From a virus: a stretch of DNA of 64,000 nt. Shown here piece after piece: positions 1 to 9,503 of this stretch; position 1 is the stretch's first letter, and the number at the start of each line of letters is the position of its first letter. The position numbers were made by a program, and so were the translations under genes. The notes beneath the pieces were generated by a model, which had not been told where the DNA came from, did no database searches, and saw only the letters and a program-made list of their open reading frames with translations. The DNA is taken from UHGV virus genome UHGV-0125682, one strand, 5' to 3'.

Positions 1-58
1 AGCGTTTAGTGACCAGCTGCGACATGTAAAACATAATCTTGCCATTGACGGAAAAACA

Positions 59-1063
59 GTGCTGGATAATGGCGCTGAAGTTAATTATATCACGTCCGGC
101 AGTGACAATTTCGTTACGATAGTAGCACCTGAAGGTAAATTCAGTATTGATGCCAGTGCTGTCAAAGGAGGCAGTTTGGCAGATGCTGCAACCAAATTAC
201 TTAAAGCCTACCGAGAGCATAACGCAGATAAATATAAAGTTGATGTGTTACCAGGCCAGCAGGAAGACCCCGAACCACCACAGACAGACCCCGAGACGAA
301 CCCAGTATCACAACCAGAGAGCCAGGATGTAGGTAAATACCACTATGCACTTCAATCTCGCCCGGCTGGTGTTGGTGCTGTGCCGGATGGAAATAAAGCC
401 GTGCTTGATCGTCCTGACCAGGCTGATCAGTATTACGAATATGCTCGTCACGGTATCATTACGTATGACCGTAAACTGACAGATGAAGAAGTCAGCCAGT
501 ACGAGTTGCTCTATCTTCCTGATGAAGATGAGCTGAAAGATTTTGCAGGCCAATTGGTTGTGTCCAGCATGTCGAAACATATTGATGGCTATGTAGACCT
601 GTTTGGCAGTGACCTGAAAACATTCAAGGCGCAAGTGAAAATTCTTTTCCGCAAAGCGTTTCCAAACGTGGCGTATCCACTTGGTGATGGGGAGAACCTT
701 TTCATTATGGACGTGTATAACGCCCTTCAAAATCATTCAAGCGAAGTAAAAACAGAGCATGTGGTTGAGCCGGAATCACAACCACAACCAGCACCAGAAC
801 AGGAGCCGGAGCCAGAAGAAGCTGGTGAATCAGCAAGTGAAGCTGATCAGGAGGCAGATAAAGCACTGGAGTACCTGAAATCCGTGCCGGAGCAGTTTAC
901 ATCCCGCGATCTGACGGTCATCAGTGCTGAACTTGATCATGTGCAGGAAGCAGCAAACGCTCTAATCAGCGCAGGTCGATACGACGAGAACGAAGCCACT
1001 GTTGGTGCAGCAGTTGACTACCTGATCAACATTCTGGCTGAAATTCAGCAGGGAGGTGCTTAA
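59..1063 (+). CDS. hypothetical protein, acidic Pro/Glu-rich linkers; may be 5'-truncated (frame open to position 2, GTG at 59)
   Basis: Long ORF, stop overlaps next start (TAATG at 1061..1065). Confidence 0.5.
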   Translation: MLDNGAEVNYITSGSDNFVTIVAPEGKFSIDASAVKGGSLADAATKLLKAYREHNADKYKVDVLPGQQEDPEPPQTDPETNPVSQPESQDVGKYHYALQSRPAGVGAVPDGNKAVLDRPDQADQYYEYARHGIITYDRKLTDEEVSQYELLYLPDEDELKDFAGQLVVSSMSKHIDGYVDLFGSDLKTFKAQVKILFRKAFPNVAYPLGDGENLFIMDVYNALQNHSSEVKTEHVVEPESQPQPAPEQEPEPEEAGESASEADQEADKALEYLKSVPEQFTSRDLTVISAELDHVQEAANALISAGRYDENEATVGAAVDYLINILAEIQQGGA

Positions 1064-1524: not shown

Positions 1525-4500
1525 TTGAACAAGTCAGTTACTTCCGCGCTATCCGAAGCAGCAGACATTAACAGTGTTATTGCGCTGGTTTCTTCATTAG
1601 AGAGGCGAGAAACACGCCAGGGGCGCAGTAGTTACGTAGTCACCAGTAAAGGGGCAGAGGTAAAGACGGCTTTTAAGGTCGTTGATGCCAGCAGTCTGAT
1701 CATTTCGAACAACCTTGACGGTACGATTAATCCGGCCTTCCCGGAAGAACTCCAGCCACGTGACCGTACACGGCTATCAAGCAAACTCCAGGTTAACCGT
1801 ATTGCCTCCAATTTACGCCCGGCACAATTAACGGATTCCGGCATGAGCAGCCACGGAGCGCCGATAGTTGGTCCGGACAACGTTGTTGAATCCGGCAACG
1901 GAAGGAGCATGGGTATCTGGCGTGCCTATGAGCAAGGGCAGGCGGATGAATATCGCCAGTACCTGATCGATCATGCAAAAGAGTTTGGTCTGAATCCTGA
2001 CGACATTTCACAAATGTCTATGCCCGTATTGGTGCGAGAAAGACTCACAGATGTAGACCGCGCACAATTTGCCCGCGATTCAAACATCAGCGATCTGCAA
2101 GAGATGGCTGCAAGTGAAAAAGCGTATGCGGATGCGCAATTTCTCACTGAGAGCGTCATGGCGCTATTTAATCCTTCAGATGATGGAAATCTACTGGCGC
2201 GGTCCAATGATGCGTTTATTCGTGCGTTTTTGCGCGAAATAGGTGATACGGCGACGGCAGGTTTGCTTACTGCCGATGGGCGTCCAACGAAACAACTTAT
2301 CGACCGCATCCAGAATGCAATTTTTGCCAAAGCGTACAAGGATGAAAGGCTTGTTCGGCTGGTGGCGGAAGAGCCAGATCCGGAAATGCGTAACATTCTT
2401 ACCGCATTAAATACGGCAGCCAGCGATTTTGCGCAAATGCAGTCGCTTTCAGGTGATGTTCACCATGACACGGTAACCGGACTGGTAGACGGTATAGAGC
2501 AATTGAATGGTCTGGATAAACAGGCTATTGCCGCGCTACAGGAAGCAATTAACCTTGTTCGTGAAGCAAAAGATAACGGTCAGGCAGTAGAAGAGGTGAT
2601 CGCACAGCGTGGATTGTTTGGAGATAGCACTCCGGAAGCAGAAGCGCTTGCTCTGTTTATTGTTGCCAACAACCGAAGCGCTAAGCGAATGGGGGCAGCT
2701 TTCAAGAAACTGGCGCAAAAAATTAACGATGAACTTATTCACCAGCAACAAGCGTTAGGCGATATGTTCGGCGGCGGAGATGTCGATCTGCGTAGCATTT
2801 TATCTGCCGTTTCTGATGAAATTGAGGCTGAGTATGGCGAAGGTAAAGGGCTTAATTTCGCCATGTTTGAATCGGTTTCAGGAGAGGTCGAACCATACAT
2901 TTCAAAGCTAATTGCTGATGCGACCAGCGTGGAGGACTTGATCCGAATCGTGAAGGTGTCAGAAAAAATTAAGGAGTCCGCAAAAAAAATAAAGCGCAAT
3001 GTATTTTTGGAACTTGGTTTTTATATTCGCAATGTCACCGTTAATGAGATTAAGGAGTGGGCTAAACGTTATGGATACAGCGACGCTGTGTTAACAACGA
3101 TGTTATTGTCTTATCAACGCAGCAATTTTTATGCTAACGCACTGCGTGACGCGATTGAAAAAGGAGATGAAGCTCCTTCGCTCGCAGATGAAAGAAATAT
3201 TGATTGTGATATTGAAACGTTTTGCAACATATCAGAAGAAGGCGTGCCCGCTGAACAATTTATACGTGTTTTACATAATGCAGCAAAACATATTCCTGAT
3301 GACTTTAGTATTGATGAATTGCGCAATGGTTGTCTTGTTTGGTTAGGTAACTATTTAAAATCTCCAGCGTCTATTGCAGAGAAAACAGCTTTAAGATTTA
3401 GAAAGGAAATGAATAAAGCTGGAAGCGCAGAAGAGATGGTGTGCATAATCCAAAATACTTTGAAGTTATTCAAAAAGAGCTTGCATAATATCGACGATAT
3501 TATGGCGGCTGGTAGGAAAATAACAGCCAGTGTCGGAGTTAGCTCTGAACTAACGGCAGAGGAGATCGCTGATGCGTATATTGAGACACTTGTCAGGCTT
3601 AAGGAGATAGTGGAATTAGCAGAGCATTCCTCATATTACGGAATCAAGGAGCGTGTTGACTTTACTATAGAACAAATCAATAAAGTTAGGTCAAATAAGG
3701 AAAAACTCACTGACTACCTTGCTGATGTTTTGCACCAGAATGATCATGGGATTGGATATGATCTGAAAAAAATGCTTGTTTTTAATCTGGACATACCGGA
3801 AGACTTGCAAGCAGAACTATATGAAATAGCTTCATTAACACGTGGACAAAAAGCCTATCCTAATGCGCTTGAAAATGTAGTACATAAAAAAGTCAGAGCC
3901 GCATTTGACATGATTCTTGAATCGTCAAATGTGTCACATGACCAGTCTAAGGAATGGAGTCGTGGGATTGCTATTTCTGATGAAGCAGAGCAGTTAAGTG
4001 GTCACGATAATGAAACTTTCTCCCGTAAAGCATACAGTATTCGCGAGACGATTGAAAAAGCCTATATTATTTCAGGAGGGACTTTATCTACATTAAAAAA
4101 TATTAACCACAAGAACAATGTTCGTGCTTTTGCAAGTCGAAATGGGAATATAACAATTGATGCTAATAGTGATCACGAGCGTGTATTATGGCATGAAATA
4201 GGTCACCATATAGAACATTCAAATCCCCATCTATTGGAGAGGGCCAAAGCCTTCATTAAATCAAAAACTAACGGTAAAGTTTCTTATCATAATATTGGTA
4301 GCCGTGGCAGTGCTGAGTATTTGGTGCGAACCGACCTAAGTCATGGATATATGTCTAAAATTTATATGGAAAATACGGTAAGTTCTGTCAGCGGCAGATT
4401 TATATCAAAGCCACCTGCATTAAGCAATTGCAGGGCGACTGAGATTTTTTCTATGGCCTTGCAGATGTATGCCGATCCGGAGCAGGCGACTAACTCTGTA

Positions 4501-4566
4501 TTAAACAATGACGGCGTGCTGGAATTTTTCTTGGGATGTATGAAGGAGTTGCAAAATGAAGTATAG
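1525..4566 (+). CDS. large polyvalent virion-type protein: ParB-like N-terminal motifs, HExxH metallopeptidase-like motif near C-terminus (P1 DdrB-sized)
   Basis: 1013-aa ORF; N-terminal NPAFPEELQPRDRTRL and GNGRSMGIWRA resemble ParB/Srx nuclease-domain motifs; WHEIGHH at about aa 885; C-terminal half markedly more AT-rich. Confidence 0.65.
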   Translation: MNKSVTSALSEAADINSVIALVSSLERRETRQGRSSYVVTSKGAEVKTAFKVVDASSLIISNNLDGTINPAFPEELQPRDRTRLSSKLQVNRIASNLRPAQLTDSGMSSHGAPIVGPDNVVESGNGRSMGIWRAYEQGQADEYRQYLIDHAKEFGLNPDDISQMSMPVLVRERLTDVDRAQFARDSNISDLQEMAASEKAYADAQFLTESVMALFNPSDDGNLLARSNDAFIRAFLREIGDTATAGLLTADGRPTKQLIDRIQNAIFAKAYKDERLVRLVAEEPDPEMRNILTALNTAASDFAQMQSLSGDVHHDTVTGLVDGIEQLNGLDKQAIAALQEAINLVREAKDNGQAVEEVIAQRGLFGDSTPEAEALALFIVANNRSAKRMGAAFKKLAQKINDELIHQQQALGDMFGGGDVDLRSILSAVSDEIEAEYGEGKGLNFAMFESVSGEVEPYISKLIADATSVEDLIRIVKVSEKIKESAKKIKRNVFLELGFYIRNVTVNEIKEWAKRYGYSDAVLTTMLLSYQRSNFYANALRDAIEKGDEAPSLADERNIDCDIETFCNISEEGVPAEQFIRVLHNAAKHIPDDFSIDELRNGCLVWLGNYLKSPASIAEKTALRFRKEMNKAGSAEEMVCIIQNTLKLFKKSLHNIDDIMAAGRKITASVGVSSELTAEEIADAYIETLVRLKEIVELAEHSSYYGIKERVDFTIEQINKVRSNKEKLTDYLADVLHQNDHGIGYDLKKMLVFNLDIPEDLQAELYEIASLTRGQKAYPNALENVVHKKVRAAFDMILESSNVSHDQSKEWSRGIAISDEAEQLSGHDNETFSRKAYSIRETIEKAYIISGGTLSTLKNINHKNNVRAFASRNGNITIDANSDHERVLWHEIGHHIEHSNPHLLERAKAFIKSKTNGKVSYHNIGSRGSAEYLVRTDLSHGYMSKIYMENTVSSVSGRFISKPPALSNCRATEIFSMALQMYADPEQATNSVLNNDGVLEFFLGCMKELQNEV

Positions 4567-4849
4567 CATTGTGAGTCCCGCTGGGATTAGAGGGATTGTT
4601 GAATGCTCTGATGACGGCACATTGCGTATATTTGAAGGCGATATTTCGGAAGAAAATATTGCGCAAGATTTACGCTTTATCAACACAAATTCCGCAATGG
4701 GGATCGTGAATACCATTCATGCCGATGGGGTGTTTGTTCTGCGGAGCCTGGAAACTGTTGGCTGGGAGGTTGAGTGGCCAGAGGTGGAAGGAGATCCTGA
4801 CGACGAAGACGATACTGGCGAATCATATCAAGACATTGATGTGAATTGA
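4556..4849 (+). CDS. small highly acidic protein (97 aa)
   Basis: ORF overlapping stop of the 1013-aa gene; C-terminus EVEGDPDDEDDTGESYQDIDVN; followed by intrinsic terminator. Confidence 0.5.
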   Translation: MKYSIVSPAGIRGIVECSDDGTLRIFEGDISEENIAQDLRFINTNSAMGIVNTIHADGVFVLRSLETVGWEVEWPEVEGDPDDEDDTGESYQDIDVN

Positions 4850-4862
4850 TATGATTGATAAT

Positions 4863-4885
4863 CCCGCCGTCAGGCGGGTTTTTTT
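4863..4885. terminator. intrinsic terminator between convergent genes
   Basis: cccgccgtcaggcggg hairpin plus T7 run. Confidence 0.7.
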
Positions 4886-5147
4886 AGCGTGGTGTAAGAA
4901 TAAATTCAGGATGCTCTCCAGCAAGCAATAACAGGTACTCAAATTCACCAGCCATAAGGCGTCTCGGTTTATTTCTATCTTCTTTGAATTGCCAAGCCCG
5001 GAGTTGATACCCCATTTTGTGGGCTAACTCCGTTTGCGTTAGCCCCATTCGCTGGCGGATTTCAATTATAGTTTCCGGGGTGTTTGGTGGGAGTTGTTTC
5101 ACAATATGCCCTTTGCCAATGCTGTGATTCGCAACGAAGTATATCAT
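4884..5147 (-). CDS. XRE-family HTH protein (antitoxin-like)
   Basis: MGLTQTELAHKMG helix-turn-helix signature; downstream partner of 5160..5462. Confidence 0.55.
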   Translation of the reverse strand: MIYFVANHSIGKGHIVKQLPPNTPETIIEIRQRMGLTQTELAHKMGYQLRAWQFKEDRNKPRRLMAGEFEYLLLLAGEHPEFILTPR

Positions 5148-5159
5148 CGTTGAATCGAT

Positions 5160-5462
5160 TCACAGAGCTGCGCCGAATAGACCGCAGCATGGCATCCCTT
5201 CATCACAGTACCTGGCCCATTCTTTTTGGCATTCTTCTGTTTGCGCGTATTGGCTTAACGCGTCATCCAGCATATCCCAGGCCTTATAGGAATCCTCTGC
5301 AACGCTAAACAAAGTCCTGCCTTCCCGGCTTAGAATTTGCAGATTGTAAATGTTTTCATTGCTCAGACATGCGCGGCTGATATGCATGTAAACCGACCAT
5401 GCAGGAACTCGATTTTTGATAGCAAGTTGGTGTAATTTGGAATTAATTAAAGAGCTTTTCAT
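5160..5462 (-). CDS. hypothetical protein, upstream partner of the HTH gene (start reassigned to MKSSLIN with GGAGA RBS)
   Basis: ORF with good RBS; toxin-then-HTH-antitoxin gene order. Confidence 0.45.
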   Translation of the reverse strand: MKSSLINSKLHQLAIKNRVPAWSVYMHISRACLSNENIYNLQILSREGRTLFSVAEDSYKAWDMLDDALSQYAQTEECQKEWARYCDEGMPCCGLFGAAL

Positions 5463-5645
5463 GGGATTTCTCCGCAGCAAAGTGGTCAACTTTTTCAATC
5501 TTAATGCGCACAATGTGCATATTCAAGTTTTATTCTTCACTTTGTTACGAGAGGGGCCAGCCAATATTTCTAGTTGAAAAGATCCATCATCAAAAATCAC
5601 ATACTGATTATGCTGCCGCAAACTGAAAACATTTCGCGGTGACTC

Positions 5646-7328
5646 ATGGCAACGAAAGACAAAAACAAAGGCTTTCTGTCGGCATTGAAGAAAGCCTTCA
5701 ACAGTGGCGATGTCACGCCTGCCGATCCGGTCGTTTTTACGAGCGGTCATAGTGTCGTTGCGCGTTCTGGTCTGTCCGCTTTACGTCCGGGGATACTGGG
5801 TGGCAATAGCGATGGCATGACAAGCGCGGCAGATACAGTATCAATTTCGGCAGAACTGCCCGGCGACCGCCTGCAAAAGTACAACATCCTGGAAACGATG
5901 GCTAAAAGCCCGACTATCTCGACGGCTTTAAATATTCACATTGCACATGCGCTTGCGCCTTCAAAAAAAACCGGACAAGCATTCATCCTTTCGCCAAAGG
6001 ATGGTTCCGATGCCGAGGCAGTAAGTAGATGTGAAGAGTTAACCGCTGATTTGGGGACGATGATTAATGACGGACTTCCTTCATGGGCCATGATTATGGC
6101 GATCTTTGGGGTGTCTTATGTCCGACCTTATGCTGAACAGGGCAGGGGGATAACAGGCATTGAGTCCAGTTATTACACTCTGCCACACTTCGTCCAGGAG
6201 TTTTATCGTGGTAGCCAGCTGGTAGGTTTCAGTGGTGATTACATTCTGGATACGCATAGTTTGCGCAGAGTAATAACCGAACCGTGGAATCTGGTTTCCA
6301 TGAAAAATCCCTATTGGACGCCACAGCATAAAGTTATTCCGGTTAGCTACGGCACAAAAGGGTACTCACTGTTAAGTGATCAGGCTGATAAGCCGTTAAT
6401 GGAGACGCAGAATTACGGAACTTCATTCCTGGAATACAGCTATGAACCTTACCTTAATTTATGTGCTTCGCTCGCCGCGCTGAAATCAACGCGAAATAAT
6501 GCAGCCAAAATTGACCGCCTGATTGCTCTTACGACGAACACACTGGACCCGGTTAATGCGGCGAACTATACGCGTGGCGTCAGCCAGGCATTGAAGCGTC
6601 ATAGTGACCTGGTGGCGCAAAGGTCGATTAATGCCAACGCTATTCCGACTGTGCTTAACCATCTGATACCTGTTATGGGAGACGGGAAGAACGGCATCAC
6701 CATTGATACGCAATCCATACCCGCAGATATCAGTGGTATCGAAGACGTTATGTTTCACCTCCGGCAGCTTGCTGCAAGCCTCGGCATTGACGCAACAATG
6801 CTTGGCTGGGCTGATCAGATGAGCGGAGGGCTTGGAGAAGGCGGCTGGCAGCAAACTGCTATCCAGGCTGCATTGCGTGCGAACTGGATCAGACAGGCCG
6901 CCCAGCGAACTATTTATCGGCTTCTGGACATTCACCTCGCTTATAAATACGGCAAGGTTTACACCGAAACAAACCGCCCTTATGACGTGCAATTCAACTC
7001 AATGAACACAGCTATCCAGGAAGAGGAAAACCGAGAACTGGATGCACGCGCCAACTTTGTTGCTGTCATCTCCCAAATTATGGACCAGATCCAGAACAAC
7101 CCGAAACTGGCTGGTAGTGACGCGTTTATGCGTTATCTGTTCACCGAGCAGTTGCACATCGACGATGACACTCTCAACACCATGATCAAAGAGTTTAAGG
7201 CGAATGAATCAGAGCAAAACAGCGAGCATGGTATGTACGAATCCGCGCCGTTGTCGTCCGGTGACGATCCGGAAAACTGGACGCCAGAACAGTTAATAAA
7301 CTTTGCAAAATTTGTGATGAGCAATTAA
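5646..7328 (+). CDS. putative head morphogenesis protein, portal-like by size and position
   Basis: 560-aa ORF followed by coiled-coil protein; assignment by synteny only. Confidence 0.35.
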   Translation: MATKDKNKGFLSALKKAFNSGDVTPADPVVFTSGHSVVARSGLSALRPGILGGNSDGMTSAADTVSISAELPGDRLQKYNILETMAKSPTISTALNIHIAHALAPSKKTGQAFILSPKDGSDAEAVSRCEELTADLGTMINDGLPSWAMIMAIFGVSYVRPYAEQGRGITGIESSYYTLPHFVQEFYRGSQLVGFSGDYILDTHSLRRVITEPWNLVSMKNPYWTPQHKVIPVSYGTKGYSLLSDQADKPLMETQNYGTSFLEYSYEPYLNLCASLAALKSTRNNAAKIDRLIALTTNTLDPVNAANYTRGVSQALKRHSDLVAQRSINANAIPTVLNHLIPVMGDGKNGITIDTQSIPADISGIEDVMFHLRQLAASLGIDATMLGWADQMSGGLGEGGWQQTAIQAALRANWIRQAAQRTIYRLLDIHLAYKYGKVYTETNRPYDVQFNSMNTAIQEEENRELDARANFVAVISQIMDQIQNNPKLAGSDAFMRYLFTEQLHIDDDTLNTMIKEFKANESEQNSEHGMYESAPLSSGDDPENWTPEQLINFAKFVMSN

Positions 7329-7341
7329 CCGGAGGGAAATA

Positions 7342-8340
7342 ATGCAATCACTGAATACTGTTACGGATCGCTTCTCCCTGGTAGAGAAAATCCGCAAACA
7401 CACACCGCAGAACAACCGAAATTACGTCATTCAGTCGGTACGAGACACATTCAACTCGCCAGAAACAAAAGAGCGTATCGCGCTGGGTGAGATGTATGGT
7501 TATTACGGTCATGGTCGCCGGGCGATGCACTATAACAAAACGAAAAGCCTGAACTTGCCGGAAGTCTCTGTTGTGATGGTAGATGGGAAGCCTGTTGTAT
7601 TGGAGAACGTGCCGTCAAACAGGACTATCGACATTTCGATTGACGACAACGGCATTGTTACTCATACGCAGGAAATACTGGATACAGACACCGGGCGTAT
7701 TGTTCAGGGCATGATTAATTCTGGTGCTGGTGGTTGGTCGTGGGCTACATCTGGTCCAGATTCATCGGTATCCCTGGTAAAGTCTTTCCACGGCTTTGAT
7801 TACGTAACTGTGCCTAACTATATCAGCCTCGACAAGAAAAGCCTGATGCTTGAATCAGCAGAAGAGCGCGATGCGGCTATTCATGCAGCACTTATCGAAC
7901 AAGGTTTTACCGATAACGCTGCTACGGATCTGGTTCACCACTTTTCAGCAATGAAAAATCAGCAAGCCATGCTCGAATCTGCACATCGTGAAGCCCTGGA
8001 ATCAGAATTGATGCTCCTTGAAGTGGAAAACATACAGCTTCGAGATAAGCTGCGCGCTCAAACAGCGATGATGGAAAGCCAGGGGGAAAATGCAAAGCAA
8101 TGCCGCCGGATTTTGCGTGACGCTATCCAGGAAATGCCTGTTTTTATCAGCGCAGAACAGCGCCGGGCGCTCTGCCGTATGCAGTCTGAAGATGATGCCC
8201 GCATAGTGGCTGCGATGCTTGAATCTCTTGGGGCAAATGCTACTTATGGCTTACCGGTATCAGGCAAGAAAGAACCAGAGTTATCACCGAAGGAGAACAA
8301 AAACACCACCCCGTTACTCTTCGTTTCCAGAAGGGGGTAA
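7342..8340 (+). CDS. hypothetical protein with C-terminal coiled coil (possible head protease/scaffold)
   Basis: GGAGGG RBS; coiled-coil-rich C-terminal half. Confidence 0.35.
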   Translation: MQSLNTVTDRFSLVEKIRKHTPQNNRNYVIQSVRDTFNSPETKERIALGEMYGYYGHGRRAMHYNKTKSLNLPEVSVVMVDGKPVVLENVPSNRTIDISIDDNGIVTHTQEILDTDTGRIVQGMINSGAGGWSWATSGPDSSVSLVKSFHGFDYVTVPNYISLDKKSLMLESAEERDAAIHAALIEQGFTDNAATDLVHHFSAMKNQQAMLESAHREALESELMLLEVENIQLRDKLRAQTAMMESQGENAKQCRRILRDAIQEMPVFISAEQRRALCRMQSEDDARIVAAMLESLGANATYGLPVSGKKEPELSPKENKNTTPLLFVSRRG

Positions 8341-8540: not shown

Positions 8541-9503
8541 GTGAGTATTTTAAATTCAGTTTCAGTAACTTTCAACACTTCTGAGTATAAAAACAACACT
8601 GAATACCACAAAAAAATCAAAGGTCATCAGTTGAGTTTTTTTGCTCGTCATAGCGGTCTTCTTTCCCCTTCACATAGCGCCATTATTGCCGAGTTCGCCA
8701 ACCTGGCAGGGTCTACCGATGAATACATGATCCGTCGCTCATATGCTGATATGTCCGAGATTACAGGACGCAGTATTTCTACTGTGCGCCGGGCATTTGC
8801 TGAAGCGACGAAGTGCGGAATGCTTGTTAAGCAACATCAGGTAGCGAATAACAATGCCCAGGTGTGTAACGTATATCGGTTTACGACACAATTTCTCCAC
8901 TTCATTCATGTAGCAATGGAGATAGGGGGTAAGCAGGGCATCAAATTTGCCAACGCCACAAAACTGGTTAAGCAGTTGATTTCAAAGGTTCGTTATTTTT
9001 TTGAAACTGGGAACCCCCTGTTCAAATTGAACAAGTCCCCCCATGTTCAAAATGAACAGCCAATAGAAAATAAGAGTTACTCTATAGCCAAAAGAAGAGA
9101 AAGATCATGCGCGGTTCAGCCAAAGGCTTCACCAGCAGATAGTTCTCAAACGGATAACGGTGTACTGGATAAAAAACCAGTAATCAGGGAAGAACATACC
9201 AACCACTGCCTGGCGGCGGCAAAAGCGAGAGCTGCAAAGCGTCGTTCAGACGAGGGGCACGCAAAACGGCAGGCTCTGTATCGTACCGCTGAAAAGCTGG
9301 CAAAAAAATTTGCATGGATACGTAGTGCCGCTACCGCAGTGAATAAGCCTAAACAATCCAGTGCCCTGGATTTCTCAATGGATTATTCTGGCTCCCAGGG
9401 GTGTGCAACCATTGGTGAAGCCTTTGACCTGATGAAACAGCGTGGCTATCGGTCTGAATTTGACCGTGAGGATTGGTCAATCCCTGCGGGATTTAGGGGA
9501 TGA
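8541..9503 (+). CDS. repL: RepL-like replication initiator
   Basis: HTH-like segment MSEITGRSISTVRRAFAEATKCGML; operator upstream; adjacent to icd/ant module. Confidence 0.5.
   Translation: MSILNSVSVTFNTSEYKNNTEYHKKIKGHQLSFFARHSGLLSPSHSAIIAEFANLAGSTDEYMIRRSYADMSEITGRSISTVRRAFAEATKCGMLVKQHQVANNNAQVCNVYRFTTQFLHFIHVAMEIGGKQGIKFANATKLVKQLISKVRYFFETGNPLFKLNKSPHVQNEQPIENKSYSIAKRRERSCAVQPKASPADSSQTDNGVLDKKPVIREEHTNHCLAAAKARAAKRRSDEGHAKRQALYRTAEKLAKKFAWIRSAATAVNKPKQSSALDFSMDYSGSQGCATIGEAFDLMKQRGYRSEFDREDWSIPAGFRG

Follow-up and report, generated by a model that had tools for sequence, protein, structure and literature searches.

An orthologue of phage P1 hxr closes the darA operon in a P1/D6-like phage-plasmid and co-occurs with the peptidase half of DdrB

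The stretch of 64,000 nucleotides (nt) from UHGV virus genome UHGV-0125682 that was analysed here (hereafter the window) belongs to a P1/D6-like phage-plasmid and carries at its left end the darA operon, the last gene of which codes for a small acidic protein of 97 amino acids (aa), termed ORF97 in the following. ORF97 is almost certainly a divergent orthologue of Hxr from phage P1, the gene of which has been kept in every examined relative whose polyvalent protein DdrB possesses a metallopeptidase end. P1's Dar system serves as the textbook example of protection against type I restriction that is delivered by the virion; hxr represents a seventh gene of the same operon. Based on gene linkage and operon anatomy, Hxr-like proteins are proposed to be a DdrB-specific accessory subunit acting as a chaperone or regulating how DdrB is processed and packaged, a reading to which a probability of roughly 45 % is assigned.

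Assignment of ORF97 to hxr follows from the combination of a tblastn match, the same overlap with ddrB and a full-length match to PHROG 2292. The identity to P1 Hxr (gp021, YP_006490.1, 102 aa) amounts to 40–44 % (40–42 % by tblastn across aa 1–65), and relatives of P1 were matched likewise. ORF97 aligns with residues 1–97 to positions 1–101 of the 105 positions of the phrog_2292 profile (E 2e-39), which P1 Hxr matches over its full length (E 4.3e-58) and which PHROGs labels as of unknown function. In both genomes, the gene immediately follows ddrB, the stop codon of which is overlapped by its ATG over 11 nt, and both products (97 versus 102 aa) combine a conserved domain with an acidic tail ending in a hydrophobic tip; P1 Hxr is likewise strongly acidic, with the C-terminus ...DGGDEDDDDDFGDHVDQIVY. 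The window protein differs, however, in forming a separate subgroup (VLRSLE-xVGWEVEWPEV, VN end) and in being devoid of two elements present in P1 Hxr, a 4-residue insert and the poly-Asp run. The downstream neighbours differ as well, an XRE-type gene and a 117-aa open reading frame (ORF) in the window as opposed to isaB and IS1 in P1. All features of the family were found in ORF97, i.e. the PHROG 2292 match, the overlap with ddrB, and the core motifs together with an acidic tail ending in V-N or V-Y.

The Hxr family is narrow. Exhaustive profile searching of 1.84 billion representative proteins yielded 18 proteins at E-values up to 1e-3, the weakest of which (P0028) resembles an unrelated repeat protein, and a degenerate pattern (alignment A4) scanned against GTDB species-representative genomes returned 82 matches but no relative. 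Proteins identical to ORF97 are encoded on non-mobilizable Escherichia coli plasmids of about 90 kb, e.g. pTB423. The family has borne its name since the annotation of the P1 genome, and ORF97 adds a divergent member to this uncharacterised group.

The ORF at 4556–4849 is a real, conserved protein-coding gene rather than a chance ORF. An intact homologue of hxr with the 11-nt overlap was present in all of 84 related loci, which were drawn from phage, plasmid and IMG/VR collections and comprise 22 distinct Hxr sequences, one copy being truncated; in six more distant loci, the start also overlaps the upstream stop, by 4–17 nt. Comparison of the window gene with divergent homologues revealed 44–70 % identity at codon positions 1 and 2 versus 27–41 % at position 3, as expected for a protein under purifying selection. 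Differences in the length of the poly-Asp tract among the 84 loci all preserve the reading frame, and no Rfam match was obtained in the region at E-values up to 1. The Shine-Dalgarno sequence AAGGAG consists of codons for Lys-Glu at the C-terminus of DdrB, a layout shared by relatives. In most of the six distant homologues, a G+C-rich hairpin 3' of the stop codon was likewise recognized by eye.

The preliminary description, made from the sequence alone, had pointed to a strongly acidic 97-aa product with an Asp/Glu-rich tail, the gene of which overlaps the stop of a 1013-aa gene for a polyvalent protein within an antirestriction locus. These observations were borne out. ORF97 has a calculated isoelectric point (pI) of 4.05 and contains 23 Asp/Glu versus 5 Lys/Arg residues (net charge about -18), with residues 76–97 accounting for 11 Asp/Glu and no Lys/Arg (net charge -11); the overlap spans the ATG at 4556 and the TAG at 4564–4566; the 1013-aa product carries a ddrB-ParB domain (Pfam, E 1e-41) as well as a HEIGH zincin motif and fits the published sense of a polyvalent protein (Iyer et al. 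2017, PMC5512222); and the gene closes the darA-ddrA-ddrB-ORF97 part of the operon for anti-restriction and head proteins, hdf-darA-ddrA-ddrB-hxr.

AlphaFold2 modelling of ORF97 predicts strands at residues 2–6, 12–17 and 22–28, helices at 32–39 and 58–67 and a further strand at 71–73, with a mean predicted local distance difference test score (pLDDT) of 80.8; block means are mostly around 90 across residues 1–70, decreasing to 76 at 41–50 and to 73 at 71–80. The protein is accordingly modelled as a small beta3-alpha2-beta domain with a flexible acidic tail, the tail being probably disordered. In the family alignment, the terminal VN (VY in P1) is conserved and the acidic linker preceding it varies in sequence. 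All P1-like members are acidic (pI 4.05–4.27), in domain and tail alike.

Several variants were observed among the relatives. In P1-type Hxr proteins (loci L012–L085, e.g. L013, L027 and L028), the poly-Asp run ranges from about 4 to 9 residues in otherwise identical genes, always in frame and as if produced by repeat slippage, and two alternative tail ends occur, ...FGDHVDQIVY and ...EEVFSDETVNQLLY. A metagenome contig (ERZ1749178 NODE_426; L089 6001–6555) encodes, downstream of a 997-aa ddrB, a 184-aa protein (P0018) with two tandem Hxr domains, the first of which has a shortened tail; this arrangement hints that the Hxr domain may work as a dimer. A decayed module was detected on the Klebsiella pneumoniae plasmid NZ_CP095134 (L004 4418–5210), where a remnant of about 200 aa of the DdrB C-terminus is located beside IS1 copies and hxr is truncated to 69 aa, lacking the tail.

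Co-occurrence patterns link hxr with the peptidase half of DdrB rather than with its ParB half. Even the divergent members, down to about 30 % identity, were found in every neighbourhood examined directly 3' of a ddrB with a C-terminal HExxH, and this ddrB encodes a ParB domain wherever enough sequence is present; the locus of P0027 (E 2e-4) displays the order lydA-lydB-hdf-darA-ddrA-ddrB-hxr. Phage D6 (L001) has hdf, darA and ddrA, whereas its DdrB (6127–7491, 454 aa) retains the ParB half only, without the peptidase half, and hxr is missing. The 20 phage records with an hxr match coincide with the 20 in which a P1-type DdrB C-terminus occurs. Plasmid records comprised 504 with hxr, 514 with the DdrB C-terminus and 609 with the DdrB N-terminus, the surplus of N-termini appearing to represent D6-type truncated genes (95–99 % identity). 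The reverse situation was encountered in IMGVR_UViG_2645727673_000011 (L028), where the peptidase end of DdrB and hxr are kept and tail-fibre repeats replace the ParB N-terminus. The ORF concerned (1965–6011, 1348 aa) fuses a Pfam Phage_fiber_2 region (E 1.9e-28) to a P1-type DdrB C-terminus and reflects either gene recombination or a chimeric assembly.

Two traits to be expected of a cognate DdrB partner, strict co-occurrence and an overlapping start, were found. Since the hxr ATG lies inside the last ddrB codons and its ribosome-binding site is formed by conserved DdrB codons, the anatomy of the junction suggests that translation of the Hxr-like protein is probably coupled to that of DdrB. 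The protein would bind the C-terminal metallopeptidase half of DdrB and would either restrain the peptidase or chaperone DdrB until processing and loading into the procapsid. Processing of DdrB to about 76 kDa, for which its own peptidase is presumably responsible, is reported to precede packaging (PMC5512222). More speculatively, the acidic tail with its V-N tip might occupy a basic, DNA-binding or active-site groove of DdrB or of another Dar protein.

A precedent for a small helper encoded after a large client exists within the Dar system, which is given as consisting of the six proteins Hdf, DarA, DdrA, DdrB, DarB and Ulx, Hxr not being among them (PMC12810830). Ulx is listed as aiding localisation of DarB into the capsid (PMC9024508, Table 1) and offers an analogy for the pair of Hxr and DdrB: it is a small protein with an acidic tail at its C-terminus, and its gene directly follows that of a large polyvalent Dar protein. 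It differs from Hxr in size (146 aa) and pI (5.3), in a 33-nt gap after darB instead of an overlap, and in having been detected in virions; no sequence relationship was found between Hxr and P1 Ulx. Other small acidic cognate partners, among them the class I chaperones of type III secretion and nuclease or protease immunity proteins of the Im9 kind, are mixed alpha/beta proteins of about 100 aa with a pI of 4–5; their genes abut that of the client, with which they are co-translated, and they are highly client-specific. Hxr would resemble these partners in the said traits.

Several points weigh against a role of Hxr as accessory protein of DdrB. Hxr was absent from the 27 P1 virion proteins that liquid chromatography-tandem mass spectrometry had revealed (PMC9024508). 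This absence is weak evidence, since trypsin would cleave P1 Hxr into peptides of 4, 22, 41 and 35 residues, only one of which is readily detectable, and a two-peptide cut-off would therefore probably miss the protein. Knock-down of hxr leaves plaque formation of P1 unaffected (PMC10695390), and no phenotype or function for hxr was found in the searchable literature. The joint absence of hxr and the DdrB C-terminus in D6-type elements may moreover reflect a single deletion or replacement event, because adjacent genes are lost or recombined as a block. Finally, pairwise (mirror-tree) divergence of Hxr correlates about equally with that of the C-terminal (r 0.59) and N-terminal (r 0.53) parts of DdrB, so that this test does not discriminate between the two halves.

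The preliminary description had raised the idea of a DNA mimic. In the form considered here, Hxr, packaged and injected or made early, would display a DNA-like charge and titrate type I/III restriction enzymes or other DNA-binding defence proteins in the manner of Ocr and ArdA. The strong acidity behind this idea was confirmed and is conserved across domain and tail of all P1-like members, and the operon partners of hxr are anti-restriction proteins (PMC12810830). Like Ocr and ArdA, Hxr is small, has a pI of about 4, and is phage- or plasmid-encoded in an anti-restriction setting; the tandem P0018 would be compatible with dimeric action as in these proteins, and absence from the P1 virion proteome counts little against an injected mimic, because trypsin releases only the one readily detectable peptide. 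Neither Pfam nor NCBIfam, known mimics included, provided a match for ORF97 or P1 Hxr, and a Pfam scan of 13 family members produced three sub-threshold chance matches, none to Ocr or ArdA; a search of PDB sequences returned nothing below E 0.5, and no solved structure matched the fold of the model. On the basis of these sequence and fold searches, ORF97 was rejected as a member of any known family of DNA mimics. Mimics of the Ocr/ArdA type carry their charge on a rigid, DNA-shaped surface, whereas Hxr is predicted to distribute its charge over a small alpha/beta domain and a disordered tail: of the 23 acidic residues of ORF97, 11 reside in positions 76–97, mostly modelled at low confidence, and the tail varies in sequence and length. 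Further, hxr follows the peptidase half of DdrB and not the anti-restriction locus as such (D6 has hdf, darA, ddrA and the ParB part without hxr), the candidates for remote homology described below are basic in two Vibrio phages, and the six-protein description of the Dar system does without Hxr. Overall, the interpretation in the preliminary description found partial support, and a DNA mimic is considered unlikely; should Hxr prove to be one, it would bring a new fold to this class.

An equally improbable alternative is that Hxr represents a structural or ejected Dar component without a specific tie to DdrB, e.g. an acidic internal head protein offsetting the charge of basic proteins or DNA during packaging and ejection. 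The operon layout implies co-transcription with head-internal proteins, among which Ulx and DdrA are similarly small and packaged, and acidic tails are common at the locus (C-terminal part of DarA, pI 4.3; tail of Ulx). Yet Hxr has not been reported from purified virions, albeit with the detection bias described above, and an independent component would leave unexplained both the universal overlap with ddrB and the joint absence of hxr and the DdrB C-terminus.

An Xre-like transcriptional repressor, a reading that stems solely from a legacy P1 label ('possible repressor; homolog of Xre', 28 % identity to Xre over about 60–80 residues), was rejected as highly improbable, because no HTH_3 or other helix-turn-helix (HTH) profile was matched by ORF97, P1 Hxr or 13 family members at E-values up to 1, the ORF97 model opens with three beta-strands in place of an HTH and does not conform to the all-alpha five-helix fold, a pI of about 4 is ill-suited to DNA binding, PHROGs lists the family function as unknown, and the true XRE-type HTH protein of the window is encoded by a separate gene on the minus strand. 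The label 'Xre homolog' in records of P1-like phages and plasmids is therefore wrong and merits correction.

The proposed control of DdrB by Hxr may extend beyond P1-like elements. Searching with the DdrB C-terminus (tblastn) revealed distant homologues in Vibrio phages of the Ackermannviridae, in one Xanthomonas phage and on a Vibrio alginolyticus plasmid, and every peptidase-module gene of the Vibrio elements is directly followed by a small ORF of 77–130 aa. Among the BFVD matches listed for the ORF97 model, the best template modelling score (0.48/0.51, probability 0.82) was obtained with a protein of Vibrio phage VAP7 named 'tetraspanin-15', which is the 90-aa ORF directly after the gene for the 1207-aa VAP7 peptidase protein; on a phage protein of this size, the name looks spurious. 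The AlphaFold model of the VAP7 ORF (pLDDT 85.7; strands 2–7, 13–18 and 31–33, helices 35–45 and 63–72) presents the same order of secondary-structure elements as that of ORF97. Statistically, this link is weak, a point that also weighs against the accessory role: the Foldseek E-value for VAP7 versus ORF97 is 0.3, and hhalign of Hxr with the Vibrio small ORFs was not significant (P 0.06), the alignment running from helix 1 through a shared G-[WY]-x-V motif. The Vibrio family comprised only 4 members in the database search, resulting in a shallow profile. Its proteins also differ from Hxr in that two are basic (pI 9.6, two phages) and without acidic tail, and the upstream proteins are devoid of a ParB domain. 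The Vibrio small ORFs are hence possible remote relatives of Hxr, to be taken as a lead rather than a result; should the link prove real, the domain's conserved role would concern the peptidase-bearing protein, and acidity would be an addition of the P1 lineage. In Xanthomonas phage Rb1, no separate small ORF follows the related peptidase; the protein instead extends by about 160 aa, followed by a DarB-like ATPase, and its C-terminal region did not match the Hxr profile.

In its widest form, the proposal would see in Hxr-like beta3-alpha2-beta proteins a partner indispensable to one clade of the zincin-like metallopeptidase modules that end phage polyvalent proteins, a clade shared by phage-plasmids of the P1 type, Ackermannviridae phages of Vibrio and Vibrio phage-plasmids. 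Self-processing would be gated by the partner and thus restricted to the capsid or to the time after ejection, the acidic tail would have been gained in the P1 lineage, with its V-N docking in the peptidase or the ParB DNA-binding site, and Hxr would be an overlooked seventh Dar component. Taken as a whole, this extended scenario is doubtful.

If Hxr does control processing or packaging of DdrB, this would shed light on how the producer cell holds large polyvalent proteins in an inert state and how they are then loaded into the capsid, and it would bear on the use of P1 heads as protein delivery vehicles. Useful points for the study of these elements are that the repressor label is wrong, that hxr is the constant companion of peptidase-bearing DdrB, and that a similar partner may accompany the peptidase modules of Vibrio phages.

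Table 1. Features of the darA operon and adjacent genes in the window, and small ORFs following peptidase-module genes in Vibrio elements (positions refer to the window unless another locus is named)
Feature	Position	Strand	Remarks
darA, 3' part	1–1063	+	Pfam DarA_C, E 3.4e-19; frame open from base 2 to the left window edge
ddrA, 122 aa	1063–1431	+	Position corresponds to ddrA of D6 and P1
ddrB, 1013 aa	1525–4566	+	ParB-like aa 42–173 (Pfam ddrB-ParB, E 1e-41); full-length match to phrog_2299
HEIGH motif (aa 890–894) of the zincin-like metallopeptidase module of ddrB	4192–4206	+	C-terminal; HExxH position, alignment with P1 DdrB
Shine-Dalgarno sequence AAGGAG	4542–4547	+	8 nt before the ATG of the hxr-like gene; within the ...MKE... 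codons of the DdrB C-terminus
hxr-like gene	4556–4849	+	ATG 4556 to TGA 4849; 97 codons plus TGA; last gene of the darA operon
Overlap of hxr-like start and ddrB stop	4556–4566	+	11 nt, ATGAAGTATAG; ddrB stop TAG 4564–4566
Predicted compact domain, aa 1–77	4556–4786	+	AlphaFold2 model; motifs PNSAxGxVNT and VLRSLExxGWxVEWPEV (family alignments)
Acidic tail, aa 78–97, EGDPDDEDDTGESYQDIDVN	4787–4846	+	pLDDT about 53; ends in the family-conserved C-terminal V-N
Intrinsic terminator	4863–4885	+	CCCGCC-GTCA-GGCGGG (6 G-C pairs) followed by T7; closes the operon
XRE-type gene, 87 aa	4884–5147	-	Convergent to the hxr-like gene
ORF, 117 aa	5160–5513	-	No family match
Portal gene (prt)	5646–7328	+	ORF list, comparison with relatives
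Head-processing gene (pro)	7342–8340	+	ORF list, comparison with relatives
repL	8541–9503	+	ORF list, comparison with relatives
Small ORF of Vibrio phages VAP7 and BX-1, 90 aa	VAP7: L097 4510–4782		2-nt gap to the peptidase gene
Small ORF of Bakedbeans, 88 aa	L100 3497–3763		11-nt overlap with the peptidase gene
Small ORF of YC and GR28A, 130 aa	L098 3431–3823		1-nt gap to the peptidase gene
Small ORF of V. alginolyticus plasmid NZ_CP082309, 77 aa	L102 3904–4137		pI 4.05; 23-nt overlap with the peptidase gene

The operon and its surroundings are composite (Table 1). Positions 1400–2870 of the window (about 1.47 kb) are 94.6 % identical to phage D6, where the similarity ends. Relative to P1, DdrB is a mosaic, agreeing by 55–85 % in the ParB part, by only 10–30 % across aa 480–760 (approximately) and by 45–50 % at the peptidase end. 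The slot between ddrB/hxr and the portal gene is variable, containing a DUF4145 gene and orf23 in D6, and isaB, IS1, isaA, ssb and lysis genes in P1. In the window, it harbours the 87-aa HTH protein, which yielded weak HTH_3, MqsA, HipB and RstR-like matches and corresponds to phrog_7950 ('transcriptional repressor', E 4e-6), preceded on its own strand by the 117-aa ORF; order and sizes of the two genes recall a toxin-antitoxin or small defence pair. On the Enterobacter plasmid NZ_CP074151, a P1-like phage-plasmid with an Hxr homologue, a gene annotated as Shedu immune nuclease family (L005 920–1537) is located between ssb and ddrB, which is another sign that this region gathers defence and counter-defence cargo.

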